This document shows positions 6,307 through 35,293 of a stretch of DNA of 64,000 nt, one piece after another (within the stretch, counting starts at the first letter, position 1; every line of letters begins with the position of its first letter). This stretch comes from Blastocatellia bacterium (GTDB taxonomy: Bacteria; Acidobacteriota; Blastocatellia; Pyrinomonadales; Pyrinomonadaceae): contig JAWVEM010000025.1 in assembly GCA_033856735.1 (NCBI GenBank), forward strand, positions 972 to 64,971, read 5' to 3'. The position numbers and the translations under genes were made by a program. The notes beneath the pieces are model-generated. The model saw only the letters and a list, made by a program, of their open reading frames with translations, had not been told where the DNA came from and made no database searches.

Positions 6307-6388
<82 letters not shown>

Positions 6389-6395: not shown

Positions 6396-7487
6396 TTACT
6401 TACGGCTGTCGTCATCGACAGCCGTTTTTTCGTTTGTGTCCAATTTGTGGACATTTTTCACAAAGCCTACTTGTTTGGTGAGTCGAACCGCGCGAATATA
6501 CCGTTCAGTAGTGGTCATGTCGCGGTGTCCCATAATCGTCTTGATGGTGAACGCATCGTAGCCGGCCATTGCCATCCGAGTGCAAAAGGTGGCTCTGAGA
6601 TCGTGCCATTCGAGATCGCGTATTTCCGCTAGTTGGCACGCTGTTGCGAACGCTGTCTTGATGTCAACGTAGGGCTTTTTCGTAGTCGGATTTACGAACA
6701 AATACTCGTCCGCTTTTTTCTTTGCGCAGAGTTTGCCGAGGATTGGTTTTACCCTTTCGTCCAAGACGTCCATTGGTATTTCTCGGTTCCGCTTGCCCTT
6801 TGTTTTGCTGGCGACTACCACACCGCGGACAAAGTCCACCTGGTCGCGTCGTAAATTCAGCTGCTCACGCTTCCTTAGACCTAAACCCAATGCGATGATC
6901 ACCATGTCATAGAGGTGTCGCCTTTTGCCGACTAAGGTGGACATCAGGGTCGTTTCCTCCTCCGGATCGAGAACGCGATAACGCTGATTGTCCAGCTTGA
7001 ACTTTTCTACGTGCGAACATGGATTGCGGTCGGCTTTGCCGAGCGAGATCGCTAGGGTGTATATGCGAGACAGCATCTCGAACTCCCGGTTAACCGATGC
7101 TGGCGCTCGCTCGCTGTCGTGTTTTGTGTTGGTTGCCAACCTTTTCGTTTTGAACCGTTCAATTTCGAGAGGCTGGACTTCCCGTAGTTGCCTGTTGCCG
7201 AAAAACTTTTTCAGAACGACTTTGCCGTACTCGTCGTTTTTCCACGACTTCTTGTTGGACTTGGCCCAGGGCATGTAGATGTCGTCAATGAAGTCATCGA
7301 CTTTCATTGTGCCGGTTTCTAGCATGCCAAAGGTTCCTTGATAGACGTCCTGCTTCAGTTTGTGTTCGGCTTGCTCAGCTTGCCTTTTGGTCCGAGCCTC
7401 AGGAATTGCTCCGCGGTAACGCACGCCACGCACTCTGAAGTAATAATGCCAGTGATTGCCTTTCGTACCCCTTTTGTAAACAGACAT
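6396..7487 (-). CDS. Tyrosine-type site-specific recombinase/integrase
   Basis: Catalytic-type motifs LGLGLRKRE, WHDLRATF (HxxR) and GHRDMTTTERY (His and Tyr). It lies directly inside attL. Confidence 0.9.
   Translation of the reverse strand: MSVYKRGTKGNHWHYYFRVRGVRYRGAIPEARTKRQAEQAEHKLKQDVYQGTFGMLETGTMKVDDFIDDIYMPWAKSNKKSWKNDEYGKVVLKKFFGNRQLREVQPLEIERFKTKRLATNTKHDSERAPASVNREFEMLSRIYTLAISLGKADRNPCSHVEKFKLDNQRYRVLDPEEETTLMSTLVGKRRHLYDMVIIALGLGLRKREQLNLRRDQVDFVRGVVVASKTKGKRNREIPMDVLDERVKPILGKLCAKKKADEYLFVNPTTKKPYVDIKTAFATACQLAEIRDLEWHDLRATFCTRMAMAGYDAFTIKTIMGHRDMTTTERYIRAVRLTKQVGFVKNVHKLDTNEKTAVDDDSRK
6402..6431 (+). terminator. Hairpin plus T-run just downstream of the reconstituted tRNA-Pro
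   Basis: ACGGCTGTCG-TCAT-CGACAGCCGT is a perfect 10-bp stem followed by TTTTTTCG. It overlaps the last codons of the minus-strand integrase. Confidence 0.6.
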
Positions 7488-8763: not shown

Positions 8764-10002
8764 TTAGTTTCTTAAACGATGTACCTGCGCAAGCTGACGG
8801 TTGGGGAGCGAAGCGAGGATCTCGTTGATTCGGGTAGTAACTCCAGCGGTCTGTCTCGCAATGGCGGAATAGTGTTGCTCACGCCGTGTCCAGGAACCTT
8901 CGTGGTTGGACTTTTCTCTTTCCAATTCACCTCGTAATTCCTTTGTTCTGCTATCGATCACTTGTAAGGCGTTCTTGAACTCCTCGCTGCGGAGATAGCG
9001 ATACACTTCCTGGGTTTTTTCTGCTTTGCCCTGTTCGGATAGTTGAACGCGGGAAAGTTCCACAACCGCATCACGCAAAATGGACGCTAGATGATGCGCA
9101 AACTGTGGCGCTGCAACTATGACACCATCGACGATGCATATCCCCGACTGGCTTGGGGGAAGAACACGAGATACTAGGAGCCCACACCGCGTTCCTTGAA
9201 CTTCCATCGCTCGTTTCAGTTGGCGAACAAAGGCCGGCTGCCATTGATTTGTTCTCTTGCACTCATAAACTATGCAACCACAAGGCGCGCGGTCTTCAAT
9301 AATCATCTGGACGATATCGCCACCGCGCCGTTTTCGCTGAATATCGTCCATAGGGAACTGCCTTCGCAGGAGTTTTTCAAGCTCCTCTTCGCCTTCCGGG
9401 CCAAAATGGACACGATCGCGCGACTCCGCTCGTCGTTGCAGTTCCTCAATTTTTCGCTTCCAGATTTCAGCGTCGCGGTCACGACGTTCTTCAATCCTCA
9501 AACGTTTCTCCTCCTCTTTGCGAAGTTGTTGAGCAAAGGTTGCTTGAACCTTCCGAGCCGCCTCACGTTCAATGCGACGCTTCTCTTGGGTCGACATCGA
9601 ACTCTTTTCCGCCAATGCGGCTTTCATCTGTTTAGCACTCGACTGTAGTTCCTCTAATTCTTTACGAAGCTTGATCTCCGCCTTCTTAGCTTTCGCAGTT
9701 TCCTCAGCTGCGATCCGTTCTCGTGCGTTCTTCAACTGATTCCGTTCGCGAGCCAGTTTCTCTTCAGCTTGAGCTAGCTCTTTACGAAGCTTGATCTCCG
9801 CCTTCCTAGCTTTCGCAGTTTCTTCAGCTGCGATTCGTTCTCGCTCGCTCTTCAACTGATTCCGTTCGCGAGCCAATTTTTCTTCAGCTTGTGCAATCTC
9901 GTTTTTACGAGCGTCATCAATATGCAAGACGTTCTCATACTCTCGGCGTGTCAGAGAGGAGCCACAAAGCGGACAGTCGTAGGATTGATTATTATTTAGC
10001 AT
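8764..10002 (-). CDS. DUF2130-like protein: zinc-ribbon, long coiled coil and a C-terminal restriction-endonuclease-like domain
   Basis: CPLCGSSL at the N-terminus, then an ~150-aa charged coiled coil. The C-terminal FPMDDIQRKRRGGDIVQMI...CGCIVYECKRTNQW pattern matches the DUF2130 signature as I remember it. The start lies 2 nt after the upstream helicase stop. Confidence 0.65.
   Translation of the reverse strand: MLNNNQSYDCPLCGSSLTRREYENVLHIDDARKNEIAQAEEKLARERNQLKSERERIAAEETAKARKAEIKLRKELAQAEEKLARERNQLKNARERIAAEETAKAKKAEIKLRKELEELQSSAKQMKAALAEKSSMSTQEKRRIEREAARKVQATFAQQLRKEEEKRLRIEERRDRDAEIWKRKIEELQRRAESRDRVHFGPEGEEELEKLLRRQFPMDDIQRKRRGGDIVQMIIEDRAPCGCIVYECKRTNQWQPAFVRQLKRAMEVQGTRCGLLVSRVLPPSQSGICIVDGVIVAAPQFAHHLASILRDAVVELSRVQLSEQGKAEKTQEVYRYLRSEEFKNALQVIDSRTKELRGELEREKSNHEGSWTRREQHYSAIARQTAGVTTRINEILASLPNRQLAQVHRLRN
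9661..9900. repeat. Tandem 2 x 120-bp duplication inside the DUF2130-like CDS
   Basis: 9661-9780 versus 9781-9900 differ at 11 of 120 positions by my count. Each copy encodes a 40-aa unit: AQAEEKLARERNQLK.ERERIAAEETAKA.KAEIKLRKEL. Confidence 0.9.
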
Positions 10003-10004: not shown

Positions 10005-13000
10005 TCAGACCTCCAATTTACCAGCATTCTCCAACAGACCCATCCAATGGGGACATGAAACCCTGTCGGGACAGCGATCGCATGTACGCGATTTCAGTGT
10101 TGTCTTAAAGACGCCTTGTCCAAATTCTCTTAACTGATTAGTAAGACGAGAAGACTCTCTGTTGTAGTCAGCCGCTCTGTTAGTCCATTGATACGGATGT
10201 ACGGTTCCGTCTTCTCCCGAAAAGATAAAGGGTTGAACGTTAGGCTCGATCTCTCTGAGAATGACAAAGCCGACTCGCTGGGGTGGCTTCAGCCCGCCCC
10301 AAAGGAGACCTTGGCTCCGAACATTTTGAGCAATAGACTCCGGTCGGAAATTCAGTGCGATAGGAACGCCGCGCTCGTCGCGATAATGTGCTAACAGATC
10401 GAGACTCAACGGTGCACTGTTCTCACTACCGTCAATTATCAGGGTGAGCACTTCGGCCAATTTCGGCTCGGGCATGTATACTTCGGCGAAATTCAAAATA
10501 TAGCGCTCAGCTAGATTCGAATAAATCCTAGCGTGTGGATGATCGACAATGTCTTCGTCTGTGGGCCATAGTTTTGCGAGAATGGCCTTCGCCTGGACGG
10601 CACTCACTCTTCCTTGCTCTTTATGAGCTAGTTCAAGAATTGCTCTCAAAGCGTTTCGCACGACAGAGAAGAAGATTGGGTAAAGAGGTCTGAAATTCAG
10701 CGGAGGATTAATTTTAAGAAACTGATCTAGGTAGGTTCTTATGGCGCAAGAATCCTTATCGAGTGAACGTGCGGATAGTGGCCGAGCGGGTGAGCCGCCC
10801 CAAACGGGTCCCATAACAATTTCCTCGCTTCGAGGCGGCATTGGATTCAATTGAATAGTTGGAATTCCATGTATCGATTGCCATCGGTGTAATAGCGGTA
10901 CGATCCTTCGCGGCCGTGAATGCTCGGTGCCGCTCGCGGTGCTGGCGTAAGAAACGAAAAGAGCTTGCTGCGCACGAGTTGCGCCAACAAAAAATACTGA
11001 ATTTGATTGAGCCAGATCCGTGTCGGATGACGGCTGCCAAGAAGGGGGCAACCAACCATATTGGTTGGAAACCTGGCTAAGCGTTTGGCCGGCGACCGCG
11101 ACACACGGAAACTCCAGCCCTTTTGACGCGTGACACGTCATTACCCTGACGGCGTCGGACGTGGATCGCGGAGGAATAAGACACGGGGTGCTAGAGCACA
11201 GCGAAGCTCGGAAGTATTCGCCAAAAGCCTTCCTTGATTTCCAAGGCTCGCTTCCGGTATGTGTGAACCTATAAACAGCAGCTCTCGATAGCGAGGTCAC
11301 AATCTCATCCAGCATGAGTGATCGTGAAGCACCGACTTCCTTTTTAAGAATGGCTCGTAAGTAATCTCCTCCATCGAACAGGAAGATACACATCATCGTG
11401 AATGCATCACCACTGAAAGTCGCAGTTCTCAGAGCATTGATAGCGCGCCGGATGTCGGTCACTAACGTTTCACCGTCACCGAAATCGCTGTCAGCGAAGT
11501 TGCCATCCTTTTCGATTGTGCTAAGGACTTCCTTTATTACCTCGTTCGTTGTCGTTGCTCCAAAGCTCTCTAGTCCTAAAGCGCAGGCTAGTCTAGGAAG
11601 AGACGCCCGAGGGCGATTGACAAACGTCACAACCGCCGCAAGATCTCCCGCCGCACCCTCAGCAGTAATCAAGCCGTTCGTAGTTGCGCGAACTCCCAGA
11701 GCACCTAGCGTTAGAACGATATTCCTAACATCGACATTGCGTCTGGCTAACACTGCGATGTCACGAAACGGAATATCGGCGTCAAGCCATGACTTGACCT
11801 GATTTGCGATACCGGCTTGTTCTGCCTGGTCGGAGTCTGCGATCGCAACTATTACTGATGGTTCTCCGATAGCTACATGTTCAACTCCCGGTTTCCACCG
11901 TTCGCTGAAAACGGCATCAGTTCGGTCCGGCTGCTCAATTAACGTTGCCATCTGATTAGCTGCCTTAACGACTTGAGCACTCGAACGGTAGTTCGTGTTG
12001 AGGTAGAAGATCTTGGCTCCGCCAAAGTCACTCTCGAATTCATCAACATTCTCAGGGGCCGCTCCTCGGAATTGGTAGATCGCTTGTCGTGTGTCACCAA
12101 CGACCCAGGGCGGGTTCGTCTTAGCGTCACAAAGCAGGCACAGCAACTTCGAGACACTACGACTTACGTCCTGATACTCATCGACCATAATCCATCGATA
12201 CTTAGTCCTATAGGCTTCAACTATTGCCGGGTGCTGCTCAAGAATCTTTACAGGGAGTGCGATCAGATCTGCGAAGTCGATCAGCTTGGTGCTTTTCTTT
12301 GCCATCTCATACGCTTGAAAAAGCTTAAGAAATTGACTCGCACGTTCGTACTGTTCCACTTCCGCTACTGAGGGTTTCCACTTTTTTAGCTCCTCCGAAA
12401 GGTCTTCAGGAAATCGGACCCTGTCCTTCAGAAAACCAATGTGCTGAACTACTTCCTCGGCGGTTTCCGTAGGGGAATAGAGCTTCAGGATCTTTTCACA
12501 GTCGACGGTTCCCAGTAAGTTGGAAATCAGTTCCTGTTGTCCTGTTTCATCAATTACGGTTGCACTTGCATCGATGTCGAGGAAATGACCATGATGGTGA
12601 ATGAACGAAACGCCTAGTCCGTGAAACGTATTAACCTCTATTCGAGAAGCAATCTCAGACCCGAACTTTCTTTGAATACGATCCATTAATTCTTCAGCGG
12701 CATCATTACTGAAAGTCAATACAAGTATGGTTTCTGGGGAGGCGAAAAGCTCTTCGATCAGGAACTGAATCCTCGCTATCAACGTTGCCGTTTTGCCGGT
12801 GCCAGGACCAGCGTTGACCAATGCTGGGCCAGCAGTATACCGAGCAGCTTCGATCTGACTTGGGTCGGGTGTTACCGGTTTCTTCTCCTCCGGCGCCTCG
12901 CCGCCTAGCGTAATCTCATAAAGTGCCTCAGCCAGCTGAGCTTGAACTAAGTGGACTGGCAGGCCTAAGGCTGTTGCTAATGATATACTGCTACTATTCG

Positions 13001-13451
13001 ATTCGCTCTGCCACTTTTCAAACAGCTCATTGGCCGGACAAAGAAATTCGACCGCAAAACTGTTTGCTTCCGTCTCTTCCCTGCCGTGTCTGTTATATCT
13101 GGCCAGCGAGGGCGCACCATCATTCAGGTACATGGACCCGGCTAGCGTTTCTGGGGCCGTACAGCCGCGACGCAAGCGGGGATGCAACTCCAAATGACCG
13201 AGTTCATGAAGAATTATCATGAGCCGTTCATGCGAATCGCTATCAAGCTGTTTGTCATAGAAGAGAATCCCTTCCGCGGGTGAAACCTCGGCCCTACCTC
13301 CTTCAAGGAACGCCTTTGTCGTGGGCTCCAACTCTATTTCATAAACGTCAGAGAGATAGCGCACGACTCGCTCAAATAACTGGTCGGACGAGGTCCCAAT
13401 TATTTCTCGACATGAACGTGCCCGTTCTCTGGCATACCTAAGTGATCGCAT
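10005..13451 (-). CDS. ImmA/IrrE-type metallopeptidase - UvrD/PcrA-family SF1 helicase - Cas4/AddB-like nuclease fusion
   Basis: HELGHLELH (HExxH). Walker A AGPGTGKT, MVDEYQD, VVGDTRQAIYQFRGA, CHASKGLEFPCV and VGATRAQQ helicase motifs. The C-terminal CDRCPDRVSC (Cx2Cx5C) is typical of Fe-S PD-(D/E)xK nucleases. ATG at 13451 avoids overlap with the upstream gene; the alternative start is 13502. Confidence 0.85.
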   Translation of the reverse strand: MRSLRYARERARSCREIIGTSSDQLFERVVRYLSDVYEIELEPTTKAFLEGGRAEVSPAEGILFYDKQLDSDSHERLMIILHELGHLELHPRLRRGCTAPETLAGSMYLNDGAPSLARYNRHGREETEANSFAVEFLCPANELFEKWQSESNSSSISLATALGLPVHLVQAQLAEALYEITLGGEAPEEKKPVTPDPSQIEAARYTAGPALVNAGPGTGKTATLIARIQFLIEELFASPETILVLTFSNDAAEELMDRIQRKFGSEIASRIEVNTFHGLGVSFIHHHGHFLDIDASATVIDETGQQELISNLLGTVDCEKILKLYSPTETAEEVVQHIGFLKDRVRFPEDLSEELKKWKPSVAEVEQYERASQFLKLFQAYEMAKKSTKLIDFADLIALPVKILEQHPAIVEAYRTKYRWIMVDEYQDVSRSVSKLLCLLCDAKTNPPWVVGDTRQAIYQFRGAAPENVDEFESDFGGAKIFYLNTNYRSSAQVVKAANQMATLIEQPDRTDAVFSERWKPGVEHVAIGEPSVIVAIADSDQAEQAGIANQVKSWLDADIPFRDIAVLARRNVDVRNIVLTLGALGVRATTNGLITAEGAAGDLAAVVTFVNRPRASLPRLACALGLESFGATTTNEVIKEVLSTIEKDGNFADSDFGDGETLVTDIRRAINALRTATFSGDAFTMMCIFLFDGGDYLRAILKKEVGASRSLMLDEIVTSLSRAAVYRFTHTGSEPWKSRKAFGEYFRASLCSSTPCLIPPRSTSDAVRVMTCHASKGLEFPCVAVAGQTLSQVSNQYGWLPPSWQPSSDTDLAQSNSVFFVGATRAQQALFVSYASTASGTEHSRPRRIVPLLHRWQSIHGIPTIQLNPMPPRSEEIVMGPVWGGSPARPLSARSLDKDSCAIRTYLDQFLKINPPLNFRPLYPIFFSVVRNALRAILELAHKEQGRVSAVQAKAILAKLWPTDEDIVDHPHARIYSNLAERYILNFAEVYMPEPKLAEVLTLIIDGSENSAPLSLDLLAHYRDERGVPIALNFRPESIAQNVRSQGLLWGGLKPPQRVGFVILREIEPNVQPFIFSGEDGTVHPYQWTNRAADYNRESSRLTNQLREFGQGVFKTTLKSRTCDRCPDRVSCPHWMGLLENAGKLEV

Positions 13452-13455
13452 ACAT

Positions 13456-14019
13456 TTATTCTTTTTCCAGAAGATCGCGCCAATATCTCTTCGTATCTTC
13501 ACTCATGCCTGAACGTTCCAAGATTTGCTCCCAAGTAGTGGTGTCTTTCTTGTACGCCTCGTCTCTCGATGCGGCCCTTGGTGCTACAAAGGGCTGCTCA
13601 AACGCCCGGAGCGTAACGGTTGTTGGAATGTCCAGAGCTTCTTTTGCAACTTTTGCAAGAGCCTTCCGCCAAGTCTGCGGGACTGTTTTGGCATGACGAT
13701 TCAAATCCGAAATAAAAGTGACGCTAACTCCGAGCGCTCTTGCAATCGCCGCAGGCTTCAGATCGGTCCTCTTTTTATAAACGCCCAAGAGAGGTAGTGG
13801 CTCTTCTGTCAAGACTTCTCCGTCGGCGTCTGAATGAAGCAGCGATTGATTAAGCTGCCTCACCGCAACAATCGCCTTATTTGCGAGCTTGTTCGGATCG
13901 ACACCATTCTGACTAAGCGCTTCGTTCAGTTCTTCATCCGTCCATTCTGCTGACGCGCTAAGCCTTCTGATTCGATCAAGTATTTCTGCACTCGACTCTG
14001 TCCGTTTCTTTCCCATCAT
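13456..14019 (-). CDS. HTH DNA-binding protein (possible ImmR-like partner of the ImmA domain)
   Basis: LKPAAIARALGVSVTFISDLNRH is a helix-turn-helix. The ATG at 14019 follows AGGAAGTGAA and lies 1 nt after the upstream stop. The longer ORF running to 14163 overlaps the upstream gene. Confidence 0.6.
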   Translation of the reverse strand: MMGKKRTESSAEILDRIRRLSASAEWTDEELNEALSQNGVDPNKLANKAIVAVRQLNQSLLHSDADGEVLTEEPLPLLGVYKKRTDLKPAAIARALGVSVTFISDLNRHAKTVPQTWRKALAKVAKEALDIPTTVTLRAFEQPFVAPRAASRDEAYKKDTTTWEQILERSGMSEDTKRYWRDLLEKE

Positions 14020-14020: not shown

Positions 14021-14692
14021 TCACTTCCTTCTAGCCTTTGTGGCCTGGTTAGCTTCCATTTGGTTGCGGATAGCAGCAGCTTTCCGGTCGAGGCGCTTGG
14101 AAGCGCTGTAAATATCCTTAATTGGTATGCCGGTGGCCTTGGCGATTTCGCCGGGTTGGTCACAACCTGCGCGCATGGCGCGAAGAATTCTGGTCAACTG
14201 GTCGTCTTCGCTGCAGGCTTTGGCCAGTTCATCGAGGACACGTTCTTCGCGCTGAGCCGTTTCCGCATCAATCAATAGCTCCTCCGGCGTTCGAGCGGAC
14301 GCAATGAGCCATTCCCTTTCGGGTCGGCGCTCTTTAGAGCCAGCTTCCCAGTCCATTTCTGTTTGTCCGGTGACATCGAAGGTTGCACTCAAGAGTGTAT
14401 TGTCTTTGCTTGTGGACAAGTGATAGAGGAGGCTATCAATCACGTCCATCAGATACTTCTTGAGGTCGGGGTCTTTTTGCGGTTCCCATTCACGCTCTCC
14501 TGAATAAAGCTTTTCAAATGCCAGAGAAACGATTGAGTCAACGGTCTCTCCTTTTGGTAATTCAACCGAATTACGGGTTCTCCAAAAAAGCTTATTGCTG
14601 ACACTAAGGGCGTACCAGCCGAGTTCTTTGGCTAGGCGACCTATTTGCTCATTAGTTAATTTCGCAAGGTGGGCTCGTGCTTCTTCTTTCAA
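14021..14692 (-). CDS. Sigma-70/ECF-like regulatory protein
   Basis: Region-2-like TVDSIVSLAFEKLYSG...LKKYLMDVIDSLL and region-4-like PGEIAKATGIPIKDIYSASKRLDRK. The assignment is by pattern only. Confidence 0.5.
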   Translation of the reverse strand: MKEEARAHLAKLTNEQIGRLAKELGWYALSVSNKLFWRTRNSVELPKGETVDSIVSLAFEKLYSGEREWEPQKDPDLKKYLMDVIDSLLYHLSTSKDNTLLSATFDVTGQTEMDWEAGSKERRPEREWLIASARTPEELLIDAETAQREERVLDELAKACSEDDQLTRILRAMRAGCDQPGEIAKATGIPIKDIYSASKRLDRKAAAIRNQMEANQATKARRK

Positions 14693-14845
14693 AATATCCT
14701 CCCGCTTCTGTCCTTATTGACTATTGCCGACGAAACGTTTGGTTTTGCCATCTAGAGAGACGGAAAAAACCGCCGAGCCAGCGGCATTAGAGTCCGGGGA
14801 CGAAAGGTCCCTGAATTTTAACTTGAATGTGAGGAACGAGAGCAT

Positions 14846-15211
14846 ATGGAAAACCAAAACGACATCGACAGTAAGGCCGCGACAGCAAACCCGCCTGAAA
14901 CAGAGGTTCTCGACGAACTAATCGACGAGATAATCGACCTTGAAGAATATGCGCAAGCCAATCGCAAGCCGCCGCGCGCCCGCGGTTACCGAATACGCAT
15001 CGACAAAACCAAGTATGAAGTCAAAGTGCCGAGCATGACAGGACGTGAGTTGCTGACGCTTGCAGGTAAATCGCCAGTGAGCAACTACATGTTAACGCAA
15101 AAGCTTCGAGGCGGACAGACACGTCGGATCGAGCTGGATGAAAGCGCCGATTTCACGACGCCCGGCGTTGAGCGATTCATGACTCTGCCTCTTGACCAAA
15201 CAGAGGGCTAG
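14846..15211 (+). CDS. Ubiquitin-like (multiubiquitin-family) protein ending in Gly
   Basis: Acidic N-terminus followed by a beta-grasp-like YRIRIDKTKYEVKVPSMTGRELLTLAG segment. The protein ends ...LDQTEG-stop. It is the first gene of the E2/E1/JAB operon. Confidence 0.65.
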   Translation: MENQNDIDSKAATANPPETEVLDELIDEIIDLEEYAQANRKPPRARGYRIRIDKTKYEVKVPSMTGRELLTLAGKSPVSNYMLTQKLRGGQTRRIELDESADFTTPGVERFMTLPLDQTEG

Positions 15212-15214
15212 CAA

Positions 15215-15613
15215 ATGCGCAGGCAATTCATGCTCCCGGAGACCGACAATGCTTTTCTAGCAACGCTCGGTCTCCCTTGGGAGACCATCATAGAGAACAA
15301 TGCGCGTTGGCTGATCCTGCACGACTATGAACCGCCAGAGGGTTATGACCATAGCCCTGTGTTCCTTGCTATCCGAATCAGCCCAGGATATCCCGACACG
15401 CAGCTTGACATGGTCTACTTTTCACCTGCTCTGGCGCGACTTGATGGGCGAGCGATCGGGGCGCTCTCGACTACCGGTCTTGACGGAAAGACGTATCAAC
15501 AATGGTCGAGACACAGGACTGGACTGAATCCTTGGCGACCTGGGGAAGATGACCTTTCTTCTCATCTTGAATTGGTAAAGCACTGGCTCGAACGCGAGTT
15601 GAGGAAGAACTAA
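15215..15613 (+). CDS. Prokaryotic E2-like protein (Prok-E2_E-like)
   Basis: 132 aa with ...PEGYDHSPVFLAIRISPGYPDTQLDMVYFSP..., which resembles the 6E-system E2 family. It starts 3 nt after the Ubl gene stop. Confidence 0.6.
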   Translation: MRRQFMLPETDNAFLATLGLPWETIIENNARWLILHDYEPPEGYDHSPVFLAIRISPGYPDTQLDMVYFSPALARLDGRAIGALSTTGLDGKTYQQWSRHRTGLNPWRPGEDDLSSHLELVKHWLERELRKN

Positions 15614-15615
15614 AA

Positions 15616-16998
15616 ATGAACACAGTACTTCGATTAACAGCCGACCAACATTCTCAGCTCAACAATCACTTGTTTCCGGGAGACGGAAACGAAGCTGCCG
15701 CCGTAATTCTCTGCGGTCGTCGAGCGGGTAATGAGCGACACTGTCTGACCGCCCGAATGATTTTCCCCATACCGTATGATCAATGCTCGATCCGAACGCC
15801 CTGGCGCATAACTTGGTCGACAGAAACACTCTTGCCAGTTCTCACCGAAGCTGCAAGAGGAGACCTGGCAATCGTTAAGATTCATAGCCACCCAGGGGGA
15901 TTCGAGGAATTCTCTGAAACCGATGACAAGTCCGATCGAGACCTATTCCTCTCAGCATATGGCTGGTTCGATAATGAAGCGCCACACGCCAGCGCCATTA
16001 TGTTGCCTGACGGCCGAATCTTCGGCCGCGTGGTTGGGCCGGCAGGGGAATTCACTTCGTTCTCGTCGATTTCGGTCATCGGCGACGATATCCGATTTCT
16101 CGAACCGCAGCGATGTGAAACAGAGTTGCCAGATTACACTCTAAGACATCGACAAATCTTCGGAGCAGGTACTACTGCCTTGTTGCGCCGGTTGACAGTT
16201 GCAGTAATTGGAGTGTCGGGCACGGGAAGTCCCGTCGTTGAACAGCTCGCGCGTCTCGGCGTTGGCAAACTCATACTTATCGATCCGGATCACATCGAGG
16301 AAAAGAATCTGAACCGAATACTCAACGCCAGAATGGAAGATGCGTGCGAGAAGCGCTTTAAAGTCGACGTGATGGAACGAGCTGTCAGGAAAATGGGGCT
16401 AGGTACTGAAGTCGTTACTTTCTCACGTAACCTCTATGATTCCGACGTGGTTAAAGCGGTCGCTCAGTCCGATGTCATCTTCGGGTGCATGGACGGCGTT
16501 GATGGACGACATCTACTTAACAGACTCGCCACATTTTACCTAATACCCTACTTTGACGTTGGCGTGAAACTCGAGAGCGATGGACGGGGTGGAATCGACC
16601 AGGTCTGTGGCACGGTGCACTATCTACAACCTGGCCGCTCTAGTCTCTTCAGTCGAGGCATGTACACATTAGAGCAGGTACGAGCCGCTGGACTCCGCCG
16701 AACGGATCCGCGGGCGTATGAGGAACAGCTCAAAGAAAAATACATAACCGGCGTTATGGAGGATCGTCCGGCAGTGATTAGTGTCAACATGTTCTTTGCG
16801 AGTCTCGCTGTGAATGAATTTCTCGCAAGACTCCACCCGTATCGTGACGATGAGAACAAGCATTTCTCAACTTACCGCTTTAGTCTGTCACAGGCCCAAA
16901 CCTACAAAGAGGAAGAAGGCGAGGTCTGCCGACTCCTTATGCGGCACGTGGGGCGTGGAGATATTACTCCTCTACTAGACATGCCGGAGCTAGGCTGA
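15616..16998 (+). CDS. JAB/JAMM deubiquitinase-like domain fused to a ThiF/E1-like adenylating domain
   Basis: HSHPGGFEEFSETD matches the JAMM pattern HxHx7SxxD. VAVIGVSGTGSPVVEQLARLGVGKLILIDPDHIEEKNLNR is an E1 Rossmann nucleotide-binding motif. Confidence 0.8.
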   Translation: MNTVLRLTADQHSQLNNHLFPGDGNEAAAVILCGRRAGNERHCLTARMIFPIPYDQCSIRTPWRITWSTETLLPVLTEAARGDLAIVKIHSHPGGFEEFSETDDKSDRDLFLSAYGWFDNEAPHASAIMLPDGRIFGRVVGPAGEFTSFSSISVIGDDIRFLEPQRCETELPDYTLRHRQIFGAGTTALLRRLTVAVIGVSGTGSPVVEQLARLGVGKLILIDPDHIEEKNLNRILNARMEDACEKRFKVDVMERAVRKMGLGTEVVTFSRNLYDSDVVKAVAQSDVIFGCMDGVDGRHLLNRLATFYLIPYFDVGVKLESDGRGGIDQVCGTVHYLQPGRSSLFSRGMYTLEQVRAAGLRRTDPRAYEEQLKEKYITGVMEDRPAVISVNMFFASLAVNEFLARLHPYRDDENKHFSTYRFSLSQAQTYKEEEGEVCRLLMRHVGRGDITPLLDMPELG

Positions 16999-17363
16999 TG
17001 CGCTTGCGATTCGCCAAGCAGATGTTTCGCCGACTCTGGCAACGAGTTTTCGGAGATCCGACGCTACTAAAGGCGAGGGCAGTAGAAGAGTTGCCTGATC
17101 ATTTGAAACCGGGGATTGTGTACGTCGTTGGCGAAGGCGGATATTTGTGGTTTGTCGCCATGATCTGTCCTTGTGGATGCAACGAGACATTGCACATGAA
17201 TCTTATGTCTCACAGTCGGCCTCGATGGGACGTTATCAAGCATAAAGACGGAAGTGTTACGTTAAATCCTTCCATATCGCGATTGACTGGTTGCCATAGC
17301 CATTTTTTTCTCCGACGGGGGCGAATCGTTTGGTGGCACGCTCCGCCAAAAGAGGGCGCGTAG
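16998..17363 (+). CDS. Cys-rich small protein (DUF6527-like), possible metal-binding/E3-like component
   Basis: CPCGC...H...CHSH cluster. The start overlaps the E1 stop (TGATG). Confidence 0.55.
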   Translation: MRLRFAKQMFRRLWQRVFGDPTLLKARAVEELPDHLKPGIVYVVGEGGYLWFVAMICPCGCNETLHMNLMSHSRPRWDVIKHKDGSVTLNPSISRLTGCHSHFFLRRGRIVWWHAPPKEGA

Positions 17364-17547
17364 CCCACTCTATCGCGGTTCTGTCGTTCTCTCATATCAG
17401 GGTTGGCGATCGACGAGGTGGCTTAAGCGGGTGGATTCCGACCCGCGAGGCATCCTGGGGTAGCGCGATCGGCGAAAGGGAAGGGGTGGAAAGACAAACC
17501 GCAGAGCGCAGCACTACATATTGTGGCTTCTCATTTTATTTTCAAAA

Positions 17548-17581
17548 TCGGTTTTTGACGTCAATCGGTTTTTGACGTCAA
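17548..17581. repeat. 2 x 17-nt perfect tandem repeat, each containing palindromic TGACGTCA
   Basis: TCGGTTTTTGACGTCAA occurs at 17548-17564 and again at 17565-17581, inside a ~790-bp intergenic region. Confidence 0.85.
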
Positions 17582-18153
17582 ATTGCCACTTTGCGAACTT
17601 GGTAAGAACACAAGATGTTGTGTTTTGATCGGGAAATCGCTGATCCGTTTTCAAAATCGGGTCTGATAATTACCTATTATGTTAAAAACGCATCATCTGA
17701 GAAGCGCGGGCAATACAAAATCCGATTGATCGGCTTAACAGAAAATCTTCCGACTGTCCGCTAGACCATTTAGTTTTCGGATAGCGTGACGATTTCTTCC
17801 GGCATGGCTTCAGAAGCGTAAATGACAATGAGTCATCTTTAACGCCAAGGTATTGACAGCTCGCACAAAAGATTTTAGCCTCTCGGAGTAGGTTCTACGA
17901 AATGTCGTCCTTGCGGACTTGCATACAAAGCTAATCACAGTACGTTCAGTCTCCTAACCTGCTCTTCAATGGCCCGCAATGACACTTTCTAGCCCTCTCG
18001 GCATGCCGCGAGATCATTAGGGTATTTGTCCACGATACGGCTCGTCTAGTTAGTGCACGCATTCTGTTCACGTTGAGCCTCTGTGCTACGAGACTCGCGG
18101 ATACGGGTAGCCGGGAAGATTGCTGCCGAACACCAGGAGGTAGACATTCACAC

Positions 18154-21100
18154 GTGACTGCCGCTCAGCAGACTATAGCCGCTCTCATTCAGTCGCTAGG
18201 GAGTGCCGACTCACATACTCGTCGACGAGCAGCGGAGGCGCTTGCACGTTTGGGCAAGACTGCCGTGCCGGCTTTGATGAATGCGCTCAAGCATCAGGAT
18301 GCGCGCGTTAGAGCTGGGGCGGCCGACGCTACCAGAAGAATGGGTGCCAAAGCATCGGCGGTAATTCCGCTTCTGGTTGAAAGGTTAAAAGATAGAGATT
18401 CTGAGGTCGCCTCAAACGCGGCTCTTGCCCTAGGCTCTTGTGGTTCAGCGTCACGAGTGGCAATTCCGGCGCTGATCGAATTCCTGAAGACCGACCACAC
18501 TGATTCGGCGATTAAGGCTCTCAAACAACTCCGCCCGCTTTCTGAACCTGCGCTAATCGATGCGATCGGCGATAGCGACTACCTACTGAGCAAACGTGCG
18601 GCACTGGCACTCTGGGGTGAAACCCCGGAACGGGTGTCAATCCTAATTGAGTCTATGCAGAGCCCTGACTTGCGCGTGCGCAGAGGTGCTACCAGTTTCC
18701 TCGGGGCCATACGGGGAATCGGCACAGAAGCGGTATCAGCACTGCTTAATGCGTTGACTGAACCGGATGCAAAAGTTCGTTGTTACGCCGCTCAATCTCT
18801 AATCGGAAGAGAAAACCATTCCGACTTGGTTGTCTCTGCTTTGACAAGCGTTCTTGGCGATGAGAGTGAAAATGTTCAAGTTGCCGTTGTCCAAGCCATT
18901 GGGACCTATGGTACGGCTGCCGAACCTGCTGTTCCTGAGCTCATTAAGCTTCTAGATCGTGAGGCTGGCCCAAAGATTTATCGAGAGGTTGCTCAAGCGC
19001 TCAAGACGCTTGGTCCAGTTGCAGTTCCAGCGCTTATCAACACTCTCAGGGAGCCGGATAATAAAGCAGGGCCTAGGGCAACTGAGGTACTCGAAGAAAT
19101 TGGCGCGCGCGGGAGTGCGGGCATTCCTGCGCTCGTCGAGGCACTTAAGGATGAGAACGCAACCGTACGCAGCAGGGCCTCTACCTGCTTGGCGGCAATT
19201 GGATCGAAGACAGTCCCATTGCTAATCGAGTTGCTAGGCGATCCCCAACAGCCATTCGTCGAAGATGCGAAGGAAGCCCTTCATGCAGTTAAACGCAAAT
19301 TGGCTCGCCAGGAAGAGGATCTGAAGATCGCTACTCTATGGGCGGAAAATCTTCCCTCCCTGGAAGCCCATGACGAAAACCTGAATTATGCTTATTTCGG
19401 GAATCGTGCGTTTGCGGACCCAACTGTTCGACTGGGTCTAGATGCCAAGACTAAGCGCGAACTACTTGAGGAACTAAATCATACTTCCGGGCTCCAGCTC
19501 GAAATTGACCAGGCTTTGGCAACCTCAGAGGAAGCTCGCGCCCGCACTTCGTTGGACCAACCAAAACCCCCTCCGCCCCGTTATACTGATATCAGGTTTT
19601 ACGGAGAGGATAGGTTTCGTGGGAGAATTAAGGAACTCTCGGCGGATCAGCCTCTACAGGTGAAGGGTTGGTACGAGATTGAATTTGCGATTCGCAAGAG
19701 TCCCGTCGGCGATCTTGTAGAGGGAAAACGGGAGCCCCTCCGTGAAACGGGAAAACCTCATGATGTCGAACTTCTGGTTACAGCCGAAAGCCCGGACTTC
19801 ATTATCGAGAAGGCGGTCCAAAGATTGGTGCTGCCGCCGGAAGGAGATTCAACCGCGCCAGCCTACTTCAGGGTTTCTCCAAAAAGAGCCACAGTGAGCG
19901 TGAACAAACGATCACGCATTGATTTTCGGGTATTCTATAAATTCAACCTCCTTGCCGTTACTCGCTCAAGAGTTGAGGTAGTCGAAGAAGGCGAAAATGC
20001 GGCCATTTCAATTTTTGGATCTCCCAACGCCCGCACAGTCGAGCACGTTCGGCTCGAAAGTGATTTGTCAGCTGTTTACGATCTGCTGCCGCGTGAGATG
20101 CACATCGACATCACCCGAAACGACGATAACTCATTCAAATTTACTTTTACCTACTTGAAGGGTTTGGAAGGTGAAAAACAGGACGATGATCTTGTCTTAA
20201 CTGCTTCAATCCATTTGCAGGAACAGGCCCTTAAAGGTGCCGTCTCGAACATCAGAAAAACGTTATTGGGAATAGTGATGACCGGATCGTACGGCGAATT
20301 TGTGGAAGGGACGGATGAAATCGAATTCGCCCGACAGATGAATCTAATCGGTCGTGATGGCGAAGCCTTGTGGACCACTCTCTTCAAGCTCGACAAGAAC
20401 AGTCCAATGTACAAAATCGGCGAATTCCTCGCGGAGAATCCGTTGAAGCCAGGCTCGCTTATTCAGGTATCTACCGCGCCCGAGGCATCAGACCTCGTCT
20501 TTCCGTGGAATCTGCTGTACGACAAGAAGATTCCGGATACCGTAAGCGAGGACGTTGTTCCCGCGCTCGACGGCTTTTGGGGTCTGCGTTATATCATCGA
20601 ACAAAGATTGCCGGATACCTGGGCAAAGGATGAGCCGATTGTTTATGACGACGACTTCGAGGTTACCTTTATGCTTTGGAACTTTGTTCAAGCAAAAGGT
20701 CAAGAGGATTTCCTAAAAGAACTGCTGGCCAAAGATCGAGGAACTCTGAATACTGGCGAGTCGATCAAGAATGCTAAGGTTGCGCGTCGTTGTCTGGCCG
20801 ATTGTAAAAGCCAGATTCTCTATTTTTTCACCCACGGGCACACCAGCATTCCCGCCTCAAACATCGGCGGACTCACTTTAGCGGACGTCAAATCTCTCTG
20901 CAGTGCCATCCCGAACGATTCACCGCAGCATGCGGCTTGGGAAGCTCGCCTTGAAGATTTACAGCAAAATCAGTTTGCTTCTAACGATTCTTGGATCGAG
21001 CTAAGCGTGGGTAGACTGTCTCTCATGGAGAATCTATATAGGGAGGACGTCAACCTGCGAAATAGTCCAATCGTCTTTTTGAACATGTGCGAGTCGGCAC

Positions 21101-21402
21101 AGGTCACGCCCGATCTCTCGAAACCTAGCTTCATACACTTTTTCATCAATCGAGACGCCCGCAGCGTGATCGGGACTGAATGTTCGATCACGCCGCTCTT
21201 TGCGGACAGTTTTGCTCGCAGCCTCTTCCCGTCTCTAATGCGGGGGGATCAGATTGGGAAGATCCTTCTTGATCTCCGCCGGGACTTCATGACCAAAAGA
21301 AATCCTCTCGGGCTGGCGTATACGTTGTTCGGTTCAGCAACAGTAAGACTTGAACCGTCCCCAGTTCAAGATGGAGTCACAGGTTCTGAAAAGGAGCCTT
21401 AG
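18154..21402 (+). CDS. HEAT-repeat / CHAT-domain (caspase-fold) protease
   Basis: About 400 aa of PBS-lyase-type HEAT repeats (D..VR..AA.ALG). The C-terminal CHAT dyad is ILYFFTHGH (His) and VFLNMCESA (Cys). GTG at 18154 lies 13 nt after AGGAGG; the alternative is TTG at 18073. Confidence 0.8.
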   Translation: MTAAQQTIAALIQSLGSADSHTRRRAAEALARLGKTAVPALMNALKHQDARVRAGAADATRRMGAKASAVIPLLVERLKDRDSEVASNAALALGSCGSASRVAIPALIEFLKTDHTDSAIKALKQLRPLSEPALIDAIGDSDYLLSKRAALALWGETPERVSILIESMQSPDLRVRRGATSFLGAIRGIGTEAVSALLNALTEPDAKVRCYAAQSLIGRENHSDLVVSALTSVLGDESENVQVAVVQAIGTYGTAAEPAVPELIKLLDREAGPKIYREVAQALKTLGPVAVPALINTLREPDNKAGPRATEVLEEIGARGSAGIPALVEALKDENATVRSRASTCLAAIGSKTVPLLIELLGDPQQPFVEDAKEALHAVKRKLARQEEDLKIATLWAENLPSLEAHDENLNYAYFGNRAFADPTVRLGLDAKTKRELLEELNHTSGLQLEIDQALATSEEARARTSLDQPKPPPPRYTDIRFYGEDRFRGRIKELSADQPLQVKGWYEIEFAIRKSPVGDLVEGKREPLRETGKPHDVELLVTAESPDFIIEKAVQRLVLPPEGDSTAPAYFRVSPKRATVSVNKRSRIDFRVFYKFNLLAVTRSRVEVVEEGENAAISIFGSPNARTVEHVRLESDLSAVYDLLPREMHIDITRNDDNSFKFTFTYLKGLEGEKQDDDLVLTASIHLQEQALKGAVSNIRKTLLGIVMTGSYGEFVEGTDEIEFARQMNLIGRDGEALWTTLFKLDKNSPMYKIGEFLAENPLKPGSLIQVSTAPEASDLVFPWNLLYDKKIPDTVSEDVVPALDGFWGLRYIIEQRLPDTWAKDEPIVYDDDFEVTFMLWNFVQAKGQEDFLKELLAKDRGTLNTGESIKNAKVARRCLADCKSQILYFFTHGHTSIPASNIGGLTLADVKSLCSAIPNDSPQHAAWEARLEDLQQNQFASNDSWIELSVGRLSLMENLYREDVNLRNSPIVFLNMCESAQVTPDLSKPSFIHFFINRDARSVIGTECSITPLFADSFARSLFPSLMRGDQIGKILLDLRRDFMTKRNPLGLAYTLFGSATVRLEPSPVQDGVTGSEKEP

Positions 21403-22278: not shown

Positions 22279-23157
22279 TCATGTTGTGCGGCTTTTGATG
22301 ATCCGGAAGTCATAGAGTGCCACGCTCGCGGCAACGCCGTCCTCTGAAATGCCATACAATTCAATCTGATAATCACCGGTGGAAAGAAACTCCGAGGGAA
22401 TCCGTAATACAACAACGTTCACGCCCGACTCCGATTTCAGATTGTCGATGGTGAACAGTTCACGACCTTCCACGGTACGAACAACAGTACGATACTTGGC
22501 ATACTTGACAGCAGAAGAGAACTCAAGTTGAAGCTTAACAAGCTTGTTCTCTTTATTAAGAACGACCTTTCTTAGTTCGCCTCCCTCTCGTAGACGAGTC
22601 GGCTGAAGTGTCAGTGCCATTGAAACCTGATCAGTTGTGACTAACGGACGACTGTTGAGTTCCGCCAATTGACGTTCGATCCTCGCGCGTTCTTCATCGA
22701 CAGGAGCGGTCGCCTTCGGCAATATCAATCGGGTAATTTGGGGGGCGAAAAAAACAAAGAGGAGAATTGCCGCGAAAGCAAGTGTCACCCAAAACTTGTG
22801 TCTTTGAAAAAAACCTAGTGCGTTTCGCCATCGGTCTGCCACGGCCCAGGATTCGTGGCCAATCATTGGTTGCAGTTCTTTACCTTCAGCCACGTAGACT
22901 TCAAAAGCTTGGGCGATCATTAACTTTTGGCGTCTCTCATCATCTAAGAGAAAATTTTTCTGAAAGTCTTCACGTTCGCTTTCCGAAAGCCCATCAAAGA
23001 CGTAATCATCGATAAGATCGTCCTGAGCAACCCCCAGTCTTTCCGCGAACGCTTTGTCACAGACAATGCGTTCATCGACTTCCTCCTGTAATGGCTCCTC
23101 GAGTTCGGCGAGGAGGTACTTTCTCATTATGGTTTGTTCATTATCCGGCTCGATCAT
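22279..23157 (-). CDS. Anti-sigma factor-like single-pass membrane protein
   Basis: N-terminal YLLAELEEPLQEEVDERIV.D..F...L pattern, as seen downstream of ECF sigma genes, and one TM helix (FWVTLAFAAILLFVFFAP). ATG at 23157 follows GGAGGGA; the alternative start is 23184. Confidence 0.6.
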   Translation of the reverse strand: MIEPDNEQTIMRKYLLAELEEPLQEEVDERIVCDKAFAERLGVAQDDLIDDYVFDGLSESEREDFQKNFLLDDERRQKLMIAQAFEVYVAEGKELQPMIGHESWAVADRWRNALGFFQRHKFWVTLAFAAILLFVFFAPQITRLILPKATAPVDEERARIERQLAELNSRPLVTTDQVSMALTLQPTRLREGGELRKVVLNKENKLVKLQLEFSSAVKYAKYRTVVRTVEGRELFTIDNLKSESGVNVVVLRIPSEFLSTGDYQIELYGISEDGVAASVALYDFRIIKSRTT

Positions 23158-23186
23158 CGACGGTCCCTCCGGCGGGATTCTCATCC

Positions 23187-23753
23187 TTATATGCCAGCAA
23201 GCTCGATAATATTATCCTTGCCCGAGCGGTCAAGACATTGCAGGATGCACTTTGCCAACCGCGTCCTAATGCGAAACACTCGCGCGCGCAAAGCGCCGAC
23301 CTTGAGCCGTAGTTTATCCCCCATTTCCCGGTGGGAAGCGATTTTCGCTCGTTTCTCCTCTTTGTAGTAGCTAAGGATCAATTCCGAATTCCGACGCGGA
23401 AGCTCTGCAAGACACTGATCGAGACACCTTAGATAAGGCTCTAATTCTTCATGCGACGCCACTTCTGGCGGCGCTGGTACCGCTTTTGCTCGTTGACGAA
23501 AATACTCCCGCCTTACGTTTCTCGCCACACCGTAAAAGTAGCGCTCCTTGACTCCGACATAATTGGCCTTTAACCACGTCACCTTCTCGGCCACTCTATT
23601 AATAGTTTCGTCAGCCAGATCTTCGGCTTCGTCGCACTGTCGGTTCAGGAATACCGTTATGAGCCTGCGGCGAATTGCCTCATACTTTTCGCCTGAGTGA
23701 GCCCGATTTGGTTCAAGCCAATCGAGCAATCCGTCGAATTCTTCTTTAGTCAT
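23187..23753 (-). CDS. ECF-type RNA polymerase sigma factor
   Basis: Region 2 (AEDLADETINRVAEKV...YFYGVARNVRREY) and region 4 (ELILSYYKEEK...EMGDKLRLKVGALRARVFRIRTRL). Confidence 0.8.
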   Translation of the reverse strand: MTKEEFDGLLDWLEPNRAHSGEKYEAIRRRLITVFLNRQCDEAEDLADETINRVAEKVTWLKANYVGVKERYFYGVARNVRREYFRQRAKAVPAPPEVASHEELEPYLRCLDQCLAELPRRNSELILSYYKEEKRAKIASHREMGDKLRLKVGALRARVFRIRTRLAKCILQCLDRSGKDNIIELAGI

Positions 23754-23831
23754 TGTTCAGGCAGTGTTCTTTGGTTTCGTGATCGGCCTCGAAACAAGGA
23801 TAGCACCGCAAGCCATAACGGCAACGCGAAT

Positions 23832-34176: not shown

Positions 34177-34484
34177 CCGAAGAAACACTCGAGATCCACT
34201 TCATTCATCCTCACACCAGCAAAAGGCTGGTGGCAGATCTCAGTCCGAACTGCACCGGAACCGATGCCTTGCACGCGCTTCTGAGCGCGGACGGCGGCGA
34301 TGGCCCATTTCTAAGTCAGGCCGGCGGCCAAACCTACGAATTGTCTTTGGAAAGAACCGGTACCGCGATTACTCCCAACATGACATTTCGCGAGGCCGGA
34401 GTGATTAACCGCGACATTATCAACATCGCTCCGACCGTAATTGGCGCTGGGTCAGTCTTCAGATCAGGACCGGGACAGACCTAA
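34173..34484 (+). CDS. Ubiquitin-like beta-grasp protein (BilA-like), precursor form
   Basis: 103 aa. The beta-grasp-like fold ends in ...PTVIGAG and is followed by a 13-aa tail, SVFRSGPGQT and preceding residues. It sits between the E1 and E2 genes. Confidence 0.7.
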   Translation: MTEETLEIHFIHPHTSKRLVADLSPNCTGTDALHALLSADGGDGPFLSQAGGQTYELSLERTGTAITPNMTFREAGVINRDIINIAPTVIGAGSVFRSGPGQT

Positions 34485-35269: not shown

Positions 35270-35293
35270 AATGGCTTAGACCCAACGTTACTT

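Follow-up and report, generated by a model that had tools for sequence, protein, structure and literature searches.

A Bub-class ubiquitination-like operon of the Type I lineage with separate bubA and bubB genes on an integrative island of a Blastocatellia bacterium

A four-gene operon for a ubiquitination-like pathway lies in a 64,000-nucleotide stretch of the Blastocatellia bacterium assembly GCA_033856735.1 (contig JAWVEM010000025.1, positions 972 to 64,971 of the forward strand), referred to here as the window, in whose numbering positions are given. On the evidence of its sequence, the locus is a Bub operon of the Type I lineage and has no part in sulfur-carrier metabolism. The class, previously known as 6E or 6E/DUF6527, was recently renamed Bub (Ye, Gong, Chambers, Corbett 2024, bioRxiv 10.1101/2024.11.21.623953), and the locus is an ordinary member of this already described class rather than a new kind of system. 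We put at about 85% the probability of the overall reading developed below, in which an intact Bub operon of the Type I lineage is carried as cargo of an integrative island, works by chemistry like that of its Citrobacter homologue, is regulated by a neighboring gene cassette and serves in defense or in the response to DNA stress.

Membership in the 6E/Bub class had been proposed in an initial annotation made from the sequence, together with profile searches against the Multiubiquitin, Prok-E2_E, Prok-JAB/ThiF and DUF6527 families. All four assignments were borne out far above the curated Pfam cut-offs, two of the products were homologous to crystallized Citrobacter proteins (BubCD and BubB), and the published catalytic residues were all present. 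The bubA product, a ubiquitin-like protein (Ubl), matched Multi_ubiq (E = 1.8e-17) and consists of a single beta-grasp domain (residues 48-114) behind an acidic stretch of some 45 residues at the N-terminus. As the initial annotation had read it, this 121-residue protein ends in TEG followed directly by TAG; its C-terminus is exactly Gly121 (...LPLDQTEG), a motif common to relatives with fused and with split bubA and bubB. Its PDB matches were Ubls of Bub and Type II Bil systems, with Citrobacter BubA at E = 0.007. The bubB product matched Prok-E2_E (E = 1.7e-35) and Citrobacter BubB (PDB 9eae_C, E = 5.9e-29), whose S333, H335 and D299 aligned with S98, H100 and D65; in an alignment of 129 sequences, D65 and S98 were each conserved in 128/129 and H100 in 129/129. 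BubB contains no cysteine anywhere in the protein. The initial annotation had counted a missing catalytic cysteine in the E2 as evidence against the assignment and had looked to Ubl~E1 and Ubl~E2 thioesters for confirmation. The E2 is indeed free of cysteine, yet this is a defining trait of the family, and since the family works through tyrosine and serine oxyesters, the absence of cysteine is no refutation and oxyesters, not thioesters, are to be expected.

The bubCD product combined matches to ThiF (E = 8e-30) and Prok-JAB (E = 5.5e-8), and over residues 5-460 it aligned with Citrobacter BubCD (PDB 9ea4_A, E = 1.3e-94); the next PDB matches were ThiF (1e-8) and MoeB (3e-7), with no Bil chain among the matches. 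Its JAMM site comprises E26 and H90-S-H92-P-x6-S100-E-T-D103, the canonical HxHx7Sx2D motif. The JAB-E1 fusion and its JAMM motif had thus been recognized correctly in the initial annotation, in which the motif was written one residue too long (HSHPx7SETD). The E1 half has a single adenylation domain, in which R234 and the crossover-loop Y376 align with R227 and Y370 of the Citrobacter protein; both residues were invariant in 73/73 relatives. The bubE product matched DUF6527 (E = 1.6e-20; PF20137, labeled 'BubE' in the precomputed Pfam labels) and, behind a basic-hydrophobic N-terminal extension, carries C57/C59/C61/C99 and S92/H102 at the same numbering as Citrobacter BubE. The CPCGC and CHSH motifs pointed out earlier in this protein lie at residues 57-61 and 99-102. 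NCBIfam holds no models for BubA, BubB or BubE, and PADLOC 2.0, whose set has no Bub models, matched the window operon only with generic models for the E1-E2 and JAB proteins of CBASS. The nearest named relatives belong to the Acidobacteriota (Chloracidobacterium, Pyrinomonadaceae) and the Planctomycetota, with at most 66% BubB identity.

All four open reading frames are found on the plus strand at the coordinates given by the initial annotation (Table 1), and the tight coupling it described was confirmed: bubA and bubB are separated by 3 nucleotides (TAG/CAA/ATG), bubB and bubCD by 2, and bubCD and bubE overlap by 1 nucleotide in TGATG. Upstream of each of the four genes is a purine-rich stretch that reads as Shine-Dalgarno-like. 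bubA and bubB share one reading frame, with TAG-CAA alone between them. The TAG stop abuts the Gly121 codon of bubA, bubB has its own ATG, and GAGGGC, which encodes the final Glu-Gly of bubA, doubles as a Shine-Dalgarno-like sequence for bubB. The position of the stop matches the site after G229 at which BubCD cleaves the Citrobacter BubAB fusion, and also the junction of fused relatives, where the glycine is followed by a linker and RRxF. Alignment with the closest fused representative (...LPLDQTDG-E-LRKQF, compared with ...LPLDQTEG-stop-Q-MRRQF in the window) places the split point exactly at the processing site.

Separate bubA and bubB genes proved to be widespread among relatives. The 118 full-length proteins among the 120 closest BubB homologues listed were all stand-alone, with lengths of about 130-156 residues and mostly 131-135. 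Among the best 150 cluster representatives at 50% identity, 77 were fused and 46 stand-alone (46/126 of the complete ones), and 84 loci from many phyla comprised 24 fused and 60 split operons. The locus scan was built on a 16-sequence alignment, a mixed alignment of 66 sequences being too diverse, and its 80 loci are biased towards relatives of the stand-alone query, so that 60:24 should be read as a high-end estimate of the split-to-fused ratio, to be set against 46:77 in the unbiased cluster representatives. BubA ended exactly at the glycine in 42 of the 60 split loci; in the other 18 it carried a tail of 1-8 residues past the glycine (17 loci) or an unrelated C-terminus (one locus). Only 11/60 split junctions were in frame, which is below the chance expectation of one third (p = 0.013), and many overlapped as TAATG or TGATG. 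In L001, the closest relative, the two genes share a frame as well (TAG ACC ATG). On a neighbor-joining tree of the E2 domain, which was noisy, fused and split states were interleaved, with at least 32 changes among 129 sequences.

These distributions bear directly on two alternative accounts of the bubA-bubB junction. The shared frame, interrupted merely by TAG-CAA, could be taken for a recent nonsense mutation or a sequencing error in a fused bubAB gene, leaving a damaged operon. The stop falls exactly after the processing-site glycine, however, and the ATG of bubB is preceded by GAGGG; moreover, the split recurs among the closest homologues and in the majority of the loci, usually with other frames or with overlapping stop and start codons. 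Separate genes for a polyUbl and an E2-like protein are also listed in row 6e of Table 1 of Iyer, Burroughs and Aravind (2006, Genome Biol 7:R60), next to a JAB-E1 protein and a metal-binding protein Y. We consider the idea of a damaged operon effectively refuted. Programmed read-through of the TAG, by which a fused BubAB would still be made and a substrate for the JAB domain preserved, would account for the retention of that domain, and both here and in L001 the stop is in frame (followed in the window by CAA). In-frame junctions are nevertheless rarer than chance, the overlapping TAATG and TGATG junctions of many relatives cannot yield a fusion, and within the window TAG serves as a normal stop codon, closing 11/42 open reading frames, all of which makes programmed read-through so improbable that we reject it. 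The last alternative, also raised in the initial annotation, concerns the identity of the genes themselves: homologues are often annotated as 'ThiF' in public records, and with its ThiF-family E1 the operon might belong to ThiS/MoaD and ThiF/MoeB cofactor metabolism. Against the NCBIfam equivalogs, BubCD scored far below the cut-offs (73.2 bits against 275 for ThiF; 55.8 against 266 for MoeB), which excludes the sulfur-carrier reading; its PDB match to BubCD far outranks that to ThiF, the E1 is fused to a JAB domain and flanked by an E2 and BubE, and neither a rhodanese domain nor thiamine or molybdopterin genes lie nearby. This last possibility can be dismissed as next to impossible.

The split is therefore genuine rather than a lesion. 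Fusion of the Ubl to the E2 is among the features by which Ye et al. (2024) delimit Type I; it is absent from the window, in which the other Type I features are present. Since fused and split states are interleaved on the tree, and since the split form belongs to the original description of class 6e, in which a Ubl-E2 fusion is noted only 'in some species' (Iyer et al. 2006) and which makes the split form known since 2006, fusion is a variable trait and a poor defining feature. We have therefore filed the window locus as a split form within the Type I lineage. The published generalization that every Type I Bub operon carries the fusion does not cover this diversity and is too narrow, as roughly one third to two thirds of the relatives, depending on the sample, are split.

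The chemistry of the class has been worked out in Citrobacter, where Y370 in the crossover loop of the E1 and S333 of the E2, together with His335 and Asp299, define an oxyester pathway, as reflected in the phenotypes of the Y370F and S333A/H335A variants; ATP-dependent oxyester conjugation was shown for both the Citrobacter and the E. coli systems (Ye et al. 2024, 10.1101/2024.11.21.623953). In Citrobacter BubE, C57/C59/C61/C99 hold a structural zinc and S92/H102 form a peptidase dyad, and the protein removes conjugates in cells, with supporting data for S92A/H102A (Ye et al. 2024). Transferred to the window, this scheme most likely applies as follows. BubA would be produced with its reactive Gly121 already exposed; the E1 half of BubCD would adenylate Gly121 with the participation of R234 and ATP, and BubA would be loaded as an oxyester on the crossover-loop Tyr376. 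It would then be handed to Ser98 of BubB, with His100 and Asp65 assisting, to form a second oxyester, from which BubB would move it onto target lysines. BubE, by analogy a zinc-stabilized Ser92/His102 peptidase, would finally strip the conjugates and restrain the pathway. The fourth protein, for which the initial annotation had suggested an E3 analog, shares its residues with the Ser-His peptidase with a Cys4 zinc site characterized in the homologue, and is accordingly named BubE here as a predicted BubA-specific deconjugating peptidase.

A separate question is posed by the JAB domain of BubCD, for which the BubAB precursor has been proposed as the main or sole substrate (Ye et al. 2024, 10.1101/2024.11.21.623953). 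With bubA and bubB as separate genes, the JAB domain of the window BubCD has no such precursor to cut. The JAMM site was nonetheless intact in 34/36 operons in which BubA ends at the glycine, the window included, compared with 37/37 of those with a fused or tailed BubA. The only degenerate sites among the 73 BubCD proteins were those of L020 and L060, metagenome-assembled genomes of Pirellulales and Obscuribacterales, which read KF-SA and QQRFD for EHHSD; in both operons BubA ends at the mature glycine. An intact JAB active site in a split operon suggests a further task, and for the JAB domain in the window this would most likely be deconjugation or editing. Retention of the JAMM site favors such an additional role, or else frequent switching between the fused and split states. 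The proposal that JAB acts mainly or solely on the precursor is hard to square with the 34 intact sites in glycine-ending operons.

Compared with the Type I Bub system of Citrobacter sp. RHBSTW-00271 (PDB 9ea4, 9eae, 9eav), the window operon shares the JAB-E1 fusion with its JAMM site, adenylation arginine and crossover-loop tyrosine, the cysteine-free E2 with Asp, Ser and His, the zinc site and dyad of BubE at the same numbering, a Ubl ending in the conserved glycine, and carriage on a mobile element inserted at a tRNA gene. It differs in that the Citrobacter BubAB is a fusion cleaved by BubCD, where the window has separate genes, and in that the Citrobacter Ubl has three beta-grasp domains, where the window protein has one and an acidic N-terminal tail. 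The regulators differ as well: in place of CapW or CapH+CapP, the window has an extracytoplasmic function (ECF)-like sigma factor and an XRE protein next to a fused M78-UvrD protein. In relation to the class 6e of Iyer et al. (2006), listed with an 'inactive E2/RWD-like' protein, the E2 has since turned out to be active by way of its serine, and protein Y to be the BubE peptidase. Type II Bub (E. coli ZDHYS365) resembles the window in its free-standing BubA, its BubE and its oxyester chemistry; it is distinguished by an E2-E1 fusion (BubBD), the absence of JAB, and Lys and His beside the E2 serine, in contrast to the JAB-E1 fusion, the separate E2, and Asp and His in the window, which therefore falls outside Type II. 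Bil systems likewise combine separate Ubl, E2, JAB and E1 functions, occur in defense islands and, in Type II BilA, have a Multi_ubiq Ubl (E = 2.9e-10), but the cysteine-free E2 and an E1 that matches BubCD set the window operon apart from Bil.

The operon is carried on a 35.6-kb island (6389-41982) bounded by attachment (att) repeats, one of which includes the 3' half of a tRNA-Pro gene, with a tyrosine integrase close to it (Table 1). The G+C content of the island is 51.5%, compared with 56.8% in the right flank. The housekeeping genes fall beyond its boundaries, with surE and pcm on the left and truA, uppS, cdsA, dxr, rseP and ispG on the right. An Rfam search returned tRNA only.

Table 1. 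Positions of the bub genes, their regulatory neighborhood and other features of the island; numbering is that of the window, except for the cassette copies, which are numbered within their own loci.
Feature	Position	Strand	Size	Evidence or remark
tRNA-Pro (CGG), integration site	6309-6385	+		ARAGORN, Rfam
Left att repeat	6341-6388		48 bp	includes 3' half of tRNA-Pro
Tyrosine integrase	6396-7487	-		Pfam Phage_integrase, E = 3e-24
DUF2130 protein	8764-10002	-		Pfam, E = 9.4e-30; last of tightly packed minus-strand unit; 2-nucleotide gap
M78 peptidase-UvrD/GajB-like superfamily 1 (SF1) helicase fusion	10005-13502 (likely true start ATG 13451)	-	~1150 residues	
XRE-type helix-turn-helix (HTH) protein, predicted repressor	13456-14019	-	187 residues	1 nucleotide past the stop of the sigma-like gene
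ECF-sigma-like protein	14021-14692	-	223 residues	fold search; divergent from bubA
Putative divergent control region	14693-14845		153 nucleotides	between sigma-like gene and bubA
Direct repeat GACGAAA(C/G)GT	14729-14738 and 14799-14808		10 nucleotides	in control region
GC hairpin/palindrome CGGGGACGAAAGGTCCCTG	14795-14813			in control region
bubA, one-domain beta-grasp Ubl	14846-15211	+	121 residues	Pfam Multi_ubiq
bubA/bubB spacer CAA	15212-15214	+		after in-frame TAG (15209-15211), before bubB ATG
bubB, cysteine-free UBC-fold E2	15215-15613	+	132 residues	Pfam Prok-E2_E
bubCD, JAB/JAMM and ThiF-type E1 fusion	15616-16998	+	460 residues	Pfam Prok-JAB and ThiF
bubE, DUF6527 protein	16998-17363	+	121 residues	Pfam DUF6527/BubE
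Second Ubl/E1/JAB cluster	32908-36448			ThiF-type E1 of 422 residues with CxxC pairs
Likely Ubl needing processing	34173-34484		103 residues	ends ...VIGAG plus 10-residue tail
Right att repeat, exact copy	41935-41982	+	48 bp	
Cassette copy, L005	555-5435			
Cassette copy, L018	633-5567			
Cassette copy, L049	174-5050			
Cassette copy, L032	524-5260			

Directly divergent from bubA, across a short putative control region with a GC hairpin and a direct repeat, lies a minus-strand unit that encodes an ECF-sigma-like protein, an XRE-type protein, an M78 peptidase-helicase fusion and a DUF2130 protein. Blocks of the control region are kept in L001 (9266-9631), where the whole segment is tandemly duplicated into two copies of about 170 nucleotides, each ending in a start-like ATGGA...; the GC hairpin CGGGGACGAAAGGTCCC is kept there too, one copy with a G-U-compatible change. 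Simple promoter and terminator scans of 14500-18200 gave nothing beyond chance, and no ECF-type promoter motif could be assigned by eye. The 223-residue and 187-residue proteins had no significant Pfam, NCBIfam or PDB match in sequence or profile searches, and both were modeled with AlphaFold2 from alignments of their homologues and submitted to a Foldseek fold search. For the 223-residue protein (mean predicted local distance difference test score, pLDDT, 73) the top matches were almost all ECF sigma factors (SigH, SigE, CnrH and AlgU among them; E between 2e-3 and 1, with probabilities reaching 1.0). The 187-residue protein (mean pLDDT 75) has a confident core at residues 77-141 that matched chiefly XRE/Cro-type HTH proteins (HigA, GraA, C-proteins, ClgR and the N-terminal HTH of DdrO; probability up to 0.91, E = 0.1-2). 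Despite the weak E-values, the lists were consistent and agreed with the source annotations, one homologue of each being named 'sigma24 family' and 'XRE-family HTH', respectively, by JGI. The fusion protein carries Peptidase_M78 (23.2 bits, cut-off 22), UvrD-helicase (E = 3.8e-61) and UvrD_C domains with HELGH and GPGTGKT motifs, and matches the PADLOC models for GajB-type helicases. Elsewhere in the island, a 188-residue protein with Sigma70 region 4 is another sigma-like regulator.

The gene order M78-UvrD, XRE protein and a protein of about 225-257 residues, divergent from bubA-bubB-bubCD-bubE, recurs in L005 (Chloracidobacterium), L008 and L018 (Pyrinomonadaceae), L049 (Gemmatimonadetes) and L032 (an Abditibacteriota plasmid), and in part in L007. 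M78-UvrD homologues are full-length in L005, L018, L049 and L032 and partial in L007, L008 and L001, and the XRE protein adjoins the Bub operons of L005, L007, L008, L018 and L049. At the sigma-like position, the genes of L005, L008, L018 and L049 carry Pfam Sigma70_r2 above the cut-off, with Sigma70_r4 at the cut-off only in L005. Profile comparison with hhalign detected no relationship between these ECF sigma factors and the sigma-like family of the window, which have only fold class and position in common. According to profile matches, the window family is directly divergent from bubA in about 13/82 loci, including Planctomycetota, Bacteroidota and Desulfobacterota, and M78-UvrD is found near Bub in about 9/84 loci.

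Regulators next to Bub operons have been reported as CapW/BrxR in 8% and CapH+CapP in 31% of cases, 39% together (Ye et al. 2024, 10.1101/2024.11.21.623953). With CapH+CapP, DdrO+IrrE and ImmR+ImmA the window cassette would have in common a predicted XRE-type HTH gene next to a putative M78 (COG2856) peptidase gene, divergent from an immune-type operon; it differs in having the M78 domain at the N-terminus of a UvrD-type helicase and an ECF-like sigma factor gene within the unit, and cleavage of the HTH protein is hypothetical. Two CapP/CapH-centered papers turned up by a literature search made no mention of 'helicase', and no M78-helicase fusion of this kind appears in them. We infer that the bub genes are probably controlled by the divergent cassette in a more elaborate version of the CapH/CapP and DdrO/IrrE scheme. 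Expression would be governed from the 153-nucleotide region; the M78-UvrD fusion would inactivate the XRE repressor on meeting abnormal DNA, and the ECF-like sigma factor would then drive bub transcription.

The wider surroundings of the operon include further genes of defense type. The 709 nucleotides between bubE and the next gene contain no convincing open reading frame and no Rfam match. That gene (18073-21402) encodes a 1109-residue protein with N-terminal HEAT repeats and C-terminal FTHGH and NMCES motifs resembling the His-Cys dyad of CHAT/caspase peptidases, without a match to Pfam CHAT. On the minus strand (22279-27410) follow a TPR-CHAT protein of 1192 residues (23832-27410), the Sigma70 region 4 protein and a 301-residue protein without a family, and 28915-32487 encodes a 1190-residue TIR-domain protein. 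Positions 36710-41569 hold DUF4407, a ThsB-like TIR protein, a caspase-like peptidase (PADLOC 'caspase') and a weak SLOG/YpsA-like protein (these at 36710-40034), together with a 523-residue protein without a family. Genes for VTT/DedA membrane proteins lie just left of the island (5618-6268) and to its right (46559-47197 and 47228-47875). In a Pyrinomonadaceae contig (L003/L004, 1-20408), a split Bub operon is found among TIR, AAA+/VWA, a fusion of a Lon-like protease with RNase HII, and gasdermin with a caspase-like peptidase, and also adjoins an integrase fragment. A total of 108 plasmids (55 conjugative) carried BubCD homologues, compared with 0/50,697 phage records.

A second Ubl/E1/JAB cluster lies in the same island (Table 1) and also encodes a 241-residue protein that could be placed in no family and a JAB peptidase bearing a hydrophobic segment at its C-terminus. 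The initial annotation had described it as a second, Bil-like conjugation system. The cluster is indeed present, but the PDB matches of its E1 were limited to generic E1s, with no Bil chain among them, which leaves the label 'Bil-like' unproven.

Bub operons are held to travel on mobile elements and in defense loci (Ye et al. 2024), and the context of the window fits this description. Defense against phages or mobile elements, or a response to DNA stress, is in our view the most likely role. Alternatively, a functional Bub system might modify host or island proteins during stress or development, with the sigma/XRE/M78-UvrD genes as an unrelated module. This is suggested by the lack, so far, of phage protection in E. 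coli by any Bub operon, by the absence of the cassette from most Bub loci (see the frequencies above), and by the resemblance of the UvrD part to GajB-type defense helicases that act alone. It is opposed by the location of the operon on an integrative island with CHAT, TIR, caspase and ThsB-like genes for neighbors, by the maintenance of a strictly divergent, adjacent cassette across distant phyla, and by the DNA-damage-responsive CapW or CapH+CapP beside 39% of the other Bub operons; we regard a non-defense function as rather improbable, with some weight left to it. Less credible still is the notion that the DUF6527 protein serves in E3-like ligation or Ubl transfer, either in place of or alongside a peptidase function. 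The window protein has a Cys4 zinc site, a zinc-binding protein of this kind was speculated to be an E3-like adaptor (Iyer et al. 2006, Genome Biol 7:R60), and a Ser/His pair near the BubA C-terminus would suit Ubl transfer as well as proteolysis, the peptidase activity being extremely weak (Ye et al. 2024); the published peptidase and deconjugation data on Citrobacter BubE contradict this notion, and we consider it unlikely.

Several observations weigh against the overall reading of an intact, cassette-regulated operon with Citrobacter-like chemistry and a role in defense or DNA stress. The chemistry is transferred in its entirety from a homologous system, with about half of the aligned BubB residues in common, and the peptidase activity of BubE in vitro is very weak, requiring 48 h (Ye et al. 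2024, 10.1101/2024.11.21.623953). No Bub operon was found to protect E. coli from phage (Ye et al. 2024, 10.1101/2024.11.21.623953), so that a defense role is unproven for the whole class. With regard to the JAB domain, degenerate sites occurred in 2/36 glycine-ending operons and 0/37 others, an excess that is not significant (p = 0.24). For the regulatory part, the fold-search E-values of both regulators are weak (2e-3 to 2), the close relative L001 has a truncated M78-UvrD gene next to an intact Bub operon, and the M78-UvrD and DUF2130 genes might form a module of their own instead of regulating Bub.

Bub is one of only three bacterial Ubl pathways with worked-out biochemistry, and the sole one that runs on oxyesters. 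The natural split of bubA and bubB and the conserved neighboring regulators offer useful handles on this pathway: with BubA ready-made, the locus allows JAB to be studied free of precursor processing, and the recurrent sigma/XRE/M78-UvrD neighbors suggest a concrete signal that would turn Bub on, namely DNA detected by a helicase-protease. We tentatively raise the possibility, which we hold to be doubtful but worth stating, that the cassette is a previously undescribed helicase-coupled protease switch for foreign or damaged DNA and that JAB in split operons acts as a second deconjugase or editor. If true, this would provide the first defined trigger and a revised enzyme logic for the Bub pathway.

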